Virus record (IMG/VR): IMGVR_UViG_3300014913_001117
From: a virus
Reading direction: 5' to 3' (one strand)
Length of the DNA: 11,568 nt
Each line of letters starts with the position of its first letter. Position 1 is the stretch's first letter. Positions 8,754 to 8,802 of the stretch are shown here, piece after piece. Both the position numbers and the translations under genes were made by a program. The notes beneath the pieces were generated by a model, which was not told where the DNA came from, made no database searches, and was given only the letters and a program-made list of their open reading frames with translations.

Positions 8754-8802
8754 TACACCGGCACGACGGCTCTCGCGGCAACTTTCTGACAGCGCCGGTG
8801 TA
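8754..8802. promoter_or_regulatory. perfect 9-bp inverted repeat TACACCGGC-N31-GCCGGTGTA in the divergent MVP / 8812 intergenic region
   Basis: Read directly: 8754-8762 TACACCGGC and 8794-8802 GCCGGTGTA. Each half is oriented toward a flanking gene. Confidence 0.55.

Follow-up and report, generated by a model that had tools for sequence, protein, structure and literature searches.

The Locus and Its Genes

The window, by which the whole analyzed stretch of 11,568 nucleotides of viral DNA is meant, has a GC content of 63%. It carries small genes, most of which have no family match, although an RNA ligase and a microbial-type PARG were recognized. On the minus strand lies a gene for a major vault protein (MVP) homologue, which matches the Pfam families MVP_shoulder (5.9e-23) and Vault_3 (6.8e-9). 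A protein search returned more than 4000 MVP homologues, and relatives of the gene are present in the huge-phage genomes LR756500–LR756503, as well as in IMG/VR contigs of up to 318 kb. In a relative of lower GC content, L021, a Gp23-type capsid gene is located 10 kb from the MVP gene. Based on these relatives, the window is considered to come from a large uncultivated phage. An earlier description of viral MVP homologues exists (bioRxiv 10.1101/2023.11.10.566534). No near-identical DNA was found among the GenBank phages, the tRNA scan returned zero hits, and the Rfam search gave only one chance match below threshold and none in the gap upstream of the MVP gene. The features on which the analysis centers are the following:

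3978–4003, minus strand: second intrinsic-terminator-like hairpin with a T tract, just upstream of a motif copy at 3963
5940–5973, minus strand: intrinsic-terminator-like hairpin with a T tract that ends the MVP transcription unit; kept in L012
5991–8702, minus strand: MVP homologue, 903 aa
8703–8743, minus strand: predicted 5' leader of the MVP gene, about 40 nt, with the Shine-Dalgarno sequence GAGG at 8711–8714
8754–8762, minus strand: left arm of the inverted repeat, facing the MVP gene
8779–8793, no strand assigned: central block between the arms, CAACTTTCTGACAGC
8794–8802, plus strand: right arm of the inverted repeat, facing the 140-aa gene
8812–9806, plus strand: divergent two-gene unit of 140 aa (8812–9234) and 191 aa (9231–9806), from the gene calls of L001

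The two-gene unit had zero matches in Pfam, PHROG and PDB. A single-sequence AF2 model of the 140-aa protein was checked for a helix-turn-helix, but no fold could be called at a pLDDT of 44. For the proteins adjoining the gap, no DNA-binding domain was found by searches of the same three databases. The hairpin of the second terminator shows one compensatory pair among four relatives. No paralogy was detected between the 256-aa and the 232-aa genes.

Several further observations were made on the gene content. The 82-aa ORF at 4876–5124 (plus strand) is not called on L001, but is kept in L012 with an in-frame 3-nt indel; its homologues are called in L014 and L015, and a GGTGTA copy lies 10 nt before its start. 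It is probably a real gene. When window positions 5123–5930 were compared with L012 1006–1411, it was found that the convergent genes at 5128–5403 (plus) and 5396–5917 (minus) have as their counterpart a single unrelated 126-aa gene, with the breakpoint of this swap immediately past the T tract in the MVP terminator. Within the MVP gene, three tandem 18-bp repeats (GTGTCGTCGGCCTTCTTC) at 8149–8202 translate into a KKADDT repeat in the N-terminal portion of the protein.

Relatives Used for Comparison

Relatives were obtained by protein search and contig look-ups. Two records, L001 (11.5 kb), which supplied the gene calls, and L002 (3.7 kb), have the same sequence as the window. The metagenome fragments L010 and L012 have about 86% nucleotide identity to it. 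Four further relatives of the same lineage were used:

L014: 18.7 kb, GC 62%, MVP identity 89%
L019: MVP identity 86%
L020: MVP identity 76%
L015: 22.7 kb, GC 64%, MVP identity 74%

Distances between motif and start codon were counted in the window together with these four, which amounts to 63.6 kb of 62–64% GC with 103 called starts; many of the relatives' sites are orthologous and therefore not independent. The distant MVP relatives (L003–L009, L011 and L016–L018; 47–52% GC) have not kept the motif upstream of the MVP gene, which makes them useless for footprinting.

The Inverted Repeat between the MVP Gene and the 140-aa Gene

The first-pass annotation had pointed to a perfect 9-bp inverted repeat in this gap, built from a motif that recurs in the window, and both statements hold. 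The left arm, TACACCGGC, is followed after 31 nt by its exact reverse complement, GCCGGTGTA. With at most one mismatch, the 9-mer occurs nine times in the window against 1.88 expected, a count reached by none of 200 shuffles. A perfect inverted repeat of at least 9 bp arose in 1.4% of the shuffles of the 109-bp gap, a rate that alone is only suggestive of a non-chance repeat. The length of the gap depends on the start chosen for the MVP gene. The 103 bp given earlier is correct if translation starts at the ATG at 8708; the ATG at 8702, which makes the gap 109 bp, is the start in the gene calls of L001, lies two codons further downstream and has the better Shine-Dalgarno spacing (GAGG 8 nt before it).

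Both arms read GCCGGTGTA in the direction of the gene that they face. The left arm does so on the minus strand, 51 nt upstream of the ATG at 8702, and the right arm on the plus strand, 9 nt upstream of the ATG at 8812. These positions are kept among relatives: the orthologues of the 140-aa gene in L014, L015, L019 and L020 have the motif 9 or 10 nt before the start (N9–N10), and the MVP-directed copy is found 51–54 nt from the start in all six relatives. The six-way alignment of the gap revealed that the 8-bp cores, TACACCG(G) on the left and CCGGTGTA on the right, are invariant, in contrast to the flanks. Of the aligned sequences, two keep the ninth base pair of the repeat, one has G-T instead and three have it broken. 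Between the arms, the central block is also conserved, with TTTCT invariant across relatives. It has no equivalent at the other motif copies and may be an upstream element of one of two promoters. The start of the predicted MVP leader, at about 8743, is deduced from the position of the motif; the last 25 nt of this leader, ACACCGAGG(T)AAATGAAGATG, are invariant in the six-way alignment.

Copies of GGTGTA in the Window

The core GGTGTA occurs 13 times in the window, and eight of these copies fall within the 6.9% of it that is intergenic. All eight face a gene start or an element downstream on the same strand. The distance from the motif to the start codon is 9 nt for the genes starting at 8812 (plus) and 4830 (minus), 10 nt at 4876 (plus) and 11286 (minus), 11 nt at 3951 (minus), 13 nt at 10363 (minus) and 51 nt at the MVP start at 8702 (minus). 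Apart from the two arms, the following copies were listed:

3963–3970, minus strand: TCGGTGTA, single, directly after a terminator T tract, upstream of the ATG at 3951
4040–4047, minus strand: TCGGTGTA, followed by a conserved non-coding stretch of two hairpins that ends in the terminator at 4003–3978
4073–4081, minus strand: GCCGGTGTA, inside the last codons (W-P-V-Y) of the 256-aa gene; kept in relatives
4840–4848, minus strand: GCCGGTGTA, upstream of the ATG at 4830 of the 256-aa gene; kept in L012, L014 and L015
4858–4865, plus strand: TTGGTGTA, upstream of the ATG at 4876 of the 82-aa gene
10377–10385, minus strand: ACCGGTGTA, single, overlapping the TGA stop of the upstream gene, before the ATG at 10363
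11297–11305, minus strand: ACCGGTGTA, single, overlapping the TGA stop of the upstream gene, before the ATG at 11286

The repeat in the MVP gap is one of two arrangements of opposed copies in the window. The other one fills a second divergent gap, 4831–4875, which is only 45 bp long and consists of nearly nothing but the two copies and their distances to the start codons (9 + 6 + 14 + 6 + 10 nt). Here, the order is TACACCGGC, 11 nt and GGTGTA, and the layout is kept in L012, L014 and L015. At 11305 and 10385, the overlap with the upstream stop codon reads TGACCGGTGTA. The sites in L014 and L015 that are orthologous to the copy at 10377–10385 are at N10.

The conservation of the copy at 4073–4081 is possibly only driven by the coding sequence. 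A copy of the full consensus, TCGGTGTAG, was also noted at 7227–7232 on the plus strand, antisense to the MVP gene, and it is found at the same place in L015, L019, L020 and L016. As it covers the conserved codons S-Y-T-E-P, its conservation may be driven purely by the protein; an antisense promoter is conceivable.

The Motif across the Lineage

A logo of 28 sites gave the consensus (C/T)C-GGTGTA-(T/G)-G, or yC-GGTGTA-K-G, in which the GGTGTA core is invariant. The core is located at exactly N9 or N10 before 19 of the 103 called starts, against about 0.1 expected from its own frequency, and the spacing histogram is correspondingly narrow (N9, 7 starts; N10, 12; N11, 1; N13, 1). Other permutations of the same six letters gave between zero and four starts in the same test. 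In the window and the four relatives, no intergenic copy faces away from a downstream gene or element. Inside coding sequences, GGTGTA is not depleted: about 30 copies are present in the 63.6 kb, near the expectation from base composition.

Single copies form the majority of the motif sites. Where two copies are opposed, the distance between the cores is 35 or 37 nt in the MVP gap and 14 nt in the second divergent gap, the latter in all four lineages that have it. At 18374/18382 of L014, two copies even overlap, in the opposite arrangement. Copies directly after terminator T tracts were found at 3963 of the window and at 8792 of L014, and in the equivalent place after terminator T tracts, the lower-GC relatives L021 and L023 have (TTTTG)CTATTTAAG.

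The sites were also compared with what a conventional promoter would contain. A scan for the sigma-70 consensus (a TTGACA-like −35 box, 16–18 bp and a TATAAT-like −10 box) found zero sites in the whole window. Inspection by eye and of the logo gave no −35-like box 16–19 bp upstream of the TA, and at no position from −25 to −3 does the logo reach 0.3 bit. Four bases past the invariant TA, the 28 sites have A in 13, C in 3, G in 5 and T in 7, so a T at −7 is not conserved (7/28). Shine-Dalgarno-like 4-mers at normal spacing precede four of the 21 genes with GGTGTA and none of the 15 genes of a CGTAG class described below, compared with 25 of 67 other genes; the depletion at the GGTGTA genes is weak. 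A Shine-Dalgarno reading of GGTG itself was considered and ruled out from its spacing and from the invariant UA, which would not pair with the anti-Shine-Dalgarno sequence. A search of the literature for GGTGTA promoters found no relevant report. The motif is of practical use in annotation, since several automatic gene calls in the relatives miss an ATG at N10 and can be corrected by it.

Probable Promoter Function and Alternative Explanations

For the divergent layout, the first-pass annotation had offered two readings, a pair of back-to-back promoters and a shared operator. The former agrees with the data, in that the copies are directional and each faces its own gene, at a fixed 9–10 nt; the latter fails on the variable spacing and the single copies. 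The repeat probably represents two opposed copies of a directional element of 8–10 bp, likely −10-like single-element promoters without a −35 box, and not a functional dyad. The CCGG of the element is self-complementary, and for this reason, opposed copies resemble a longer palindrome. The GGTGTA element is, as far as sequence can tell, a lineage-specific promoter-like motif. Several observations point to promoters. Divergent gaps must hold two promoters, and the 45-bp gap at 4831–4875 is filled by two opposed copies. The low information content of the logo upstream of −3 indicates that there is no −35 element. Furthermore, a class of the form AAC-N16-CGTAGT abuts start codons as well, from which it follows that promoter-like elements are routinely placed at gene starts in this lineage.

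In the proposed mechanism, the right arm would direct transcription of the 140-aa/191-aa unit on the plus strand, and the left arm, on the minus strand, that of the MVP gene. A motif at N10 has its TA at −12/−11 relative to the A of the ATG. Initiation would then occur at the start codon or a few nucleotides away from it, which would give leaderless or near-leaderless mRNAs at most motif genes. The MVP gene would be the exception: with its copy 51 nt upstream, it would have a conserved leader of about 40 nt and a canonical Shine-Dalgarno sequence. Promoter function, the start site and recognition by a phage-encoded sigma factor or polymerase of the gp36 or gp55 kind are all inferred. A T at −7 is required by sigma-70-type −10 elements, and its absence here argues against recognition of the motif by the primary sigma factor of the host; recognition by a phage sigma factor or polymerase is plausible. 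No sigma domain was present among the recorded Pfam matches for the genes of L014–L023, and no gene for a sigma factor or RNA polymerase, including split β/β' genes and homologues of gp36, gp55 and gp33, was seen in the accessible loci, 11–23-kb pieces of the lineage that form an incomplete genome.

Three other explanations were weighed against promoters. The tight N9–N10 spacing is what would be expected of a translation signal and suits an element of the mRNA equally well. Such an element would lie in the 5' leader at −16 to −11 from the AUG and act in the initiation or control of translation or in RNA processing, for example by binding a phage protein like RegA of T4 or by being cut by a RegB-like endonuclease. 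It would also be consistent with the motif always being on the sense strand, and in co-directional arrays, the overlap with the upstream stop codon (TGACCGGTGTA at 11305 and 10385) means that read-through transcripts would contain the motif. However, the copy of the MVP gene, which has a canonical Shine-Dalgarno sequence of its own, keeps its distance of more than 50 nt in all six relatives, and the copy at 4040 precedes a non-coding stretch of hairpins and a terminator, with no ORF in L014 and L015. From the canonical 3' end of the 16S rRNA, only GGUG could pair with the anti-Shine-Dalgarno sequence, at 11–12 nt from the AUG, which is too far, and the invariant UA would stay unpaired. In addition, divergent gaps of 45 bp would force the promoters of both genes into the neighboring coding sequences. 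Action at the level of the mRNA is therefore considered unlikely.

A dimeric or tetrameric regulator that binds the two arms as half-sites, possibly with looping of the DNA, and thereby co-regulates the MVP gene and its divergent neighbor was judged very unlikely. The perfect repeat in a divergent gap, the conservation of both cores and of the central block, and a center-to-center distance of about 40 bp, roughly four helical turns, speak for this shared operator. It would predict a fixed spacing and paired sites, but neither was seen: the arms are 35/37 nt or 14 nt apart or overlap (L014 18374/18382), many copies are single and show dyad symmetry only in CCGG, the downstream gene always sets the orientation, and the ninth pair has not been kept. 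Pfam, PHROG and PDB searches detected no DNA-binding domain in the adjacent proteins, and nothing could be learned on this point from the model of the 140-aa protein. It is conceivable that a regulator occupies each copy as a monomer, which would agree with promoter function. Pairing of the arms in RNA or single-stranded DNA, to form a terminator, an attenuator or an origin-like structure, hardly deserves credence. The 61-nt stretch does fold with a stem of 9–11 bp (−18.1 and −20.5 kcal/mol), but the z-scores of −2.1 and −1.6 are unremarkable, as an equally good fold was reached by 8 and 14 of 200 shuffles. The loop would be 31 nt long with no U tract. In relatives, the stem is not extended, compensatory changes are absent and three of six have lost the ninth pair; no transcript with both arms is expected since the genes diverge from the gap.

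Opposed single-element promoters are therefore preferred for the MVP gap. From them, a broader proposal can be formulated, although only tentatively, and it may well prove wrong: in an uncultivated lineage of large, high-GC phages that encode MVP, a sigma factor or RNA polymerase encoded by the phage would recognize CCGGTGTA(K)G. This element would be one of at least three promoter classes, together with the ECF-like AAC-N16-CGTAGT and with TCTTGTRG, all abutting start codons, so that most mRNAs would be leaderless, and it would be the GC-shifted counterpart of CTATTTAAG in lower-GC relatives with a T4-type capsid gene.

The motif provides a handle, at the level of sequence, on the organization of transcription in uncultivated large MVP-encoding phages, as it would mark the starts of transcription units, that of MVP included. 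According to the promoter reading, expression of much of the genome would rely on leaderless mRNAs. Together with a cognate phage sigma factor, should one be found, the motif would join the small set of single-element phage promoters. The case also illustrates that a "palindromic operator" in a divergent gap can be merely two directional promoter motifs.

Comparison with Known Systems

The closest match in sequence and logic appears to be the promoter of phage phiEco32 that is recognized by gp36. The middle and late promoters of this phage are read by the phage sigma factor gp36 and have a single element, with the consensus AATGTA centered at −11.5 (PMC12276001). In both cases, a short −10-like element with TGTA near −11 and no −35 box precedes many phage genes and is distinct from that of the host sigma-70. 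The differences are that the upstream half is CCGG here and AA there, that the GGTGTA element abuts the start codon, implying leaderless mRNA, that the host and the phage group differ, and that no gp36 homologue was seen in the 11–23-kb pieces of the lineage.

In architecture, the closest match may be found in bacteria. In Deinococcus-Thermus, a −10 region with the consensus TANNNT is adjacent to ORFs and gives rise to leaderless mRNA (PMC12340547), and a similar situation exists in Actinobacteria. These promoters share with the GGTGTA element the fixed short distance to the start codon, the small dependence on a −35 box and the lack of a Shine-Dalgarno sequence (PMC12340547). Unlike TANNNT, however, the element has T at −7 in only 7 of 28 sites, contains a conserved GGTG upstream of the TA and is specific to a phage lineage.

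Among large phages, a comparison can be made with T4 and with phages that encode a non-virion RNA polymerase. The late promoters of T4 consist of TATAAATA at −10 and are read by the sigma factor gp55 with gp33 and the sliding clamp; the late mRNAs have leaders with a Shine-Dalgarno sequence. As in T4, an 8-bp element at −10 without a −35 box is repeated through the genome of a large, myovirus-type phage, and a link to T4 is offered by the lower-GC L021, which has a Gp23-type capsid gene and uses the AT-rich CTATTTAAG after terminator T tracts. However, the motif of the high-GC loci, CCGGTGTA, is unrelated to that of T4 at most positions; TATAAATA and CTATTTA-type motifs are absent from these loci, and no homologue of gp55 or gp33 is present in the loci examined, which form an incomplete genome. 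The late promoters read by non-virion RNA polymerases are TATG in phiKZ, where G is the start, and AACA-N6-TA/G in AR9 (PMC5312081). These motifs are likewise very short and phage-specific, and about half of the GGTGTA copies read GTATG. In contrast to what is predicted for the GGTGTA genes, the untranslated leaders of AR9 are 26–491 nt long, and no leaderless transcripts were observed in phiKZ. The phiKZ and AR9 motifs do not contain GGTG, and no split β/β' genes were seen in the loci examined. Classical dyad operators share with the MVP gap the inverted repeat between divergent genes. They differ from it in that the copies here have no fixed half-site spacing, are commonly single and are oriented according to the downstream gene; a regulator gene was not identified. 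Membership of the GGTGTA element in any of these promoter families is not claimed.

Other Motifs and Structures

A second class of upstream motifs has the form (C)TCAACA-N13-16-CTCGTAGT, mostly followed by 6 nt and ATG. It gave 19 matches in the examined loci, one of which is the window's own (on L001). Sites are located at 131–3148 and 14540 of L014, 390–6249 and 19426 of L015, 507–2040 of L019 and about 208–233 of the window (minus strand). In L014 and L015, the class reads AAC-N16-CGTAGT-N6-ATG and abuts the start codons. The AAC-N16-CGT form resembles that of ECF-sigma promoters. The sites are found among small genes that follow one another in the same direction near an ArdC-like gene and that look like early genes.

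A possible third motif is (T)TCTTGTRG, located 13–20 nt before start codons. It was found at 5918–5945 (minus) and 1330–1365 (plus) of the window, upstream of 9049, 12763, 13306, 15047, 18661 and 19020 in L015, and upstream of 4051 and 13714 in L014. It is sometimes continuous with the T tract of a terminator, as in ctcttttgtggcaccctaggaccATG before the gene at 5917 of the window.

An inverted repeat has arms of 24 nt at 34–57 and 168–191 that are 88% complementary and separated by 110 nt. On the minus strand, it is situated downstream of the ECF-like motif at about 208–233, in a region with no convincing ORF and no Rfam match, and may be a structured RNA or a long leader.

The non-coding stretch that follows the motif copy at 4040 is conserved at 3952–4059 of the window (minus), 2481–2561 of L012, 10643–10732 of L014 and 14942–15026 of L015. 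Its first hairpin pairs GGWGGG with CCCWCC across a 9-nt loop, with a swap from T-A to A-T between L014 and L015; its second hairpin is the terminator, with one compensatory pair and a T tract. Between the window and L012, the gap 3952–4059 differs at three of 108 positions, and the flanking genes are about 86–91% identical. Located about 2 kb from the MVP gene, the stretch could encode a small RNA of about 60 nt that has a promoter and a terminator of its own; alternatively, it could be a structured 3' UTR. A parallel with vault RNA would be pure speculation.

Functions related to ADP-ribose and to RNA repair recur among the genes near phage MVP genes. The window encodes the microbial-type PARG and the RNA ligase at 1896–3256 (minus); in the region 4835–9944 of L016/L017, RtcB and ARPP-1/ARPP-2 are found, in L016 directly upstream of the MVP gene; and L022 has RtcB and NADAR at 6828–8234 and 14848–15270. 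PARP4, an NADase (TEP1) and small RNAs are components of eukaryotic vaults (bioRxiv 10.64898/2026.05.01.722283). The functions in the neighborhood of the phage MVP genes may parallel these vault components, which might merit examination on its own.
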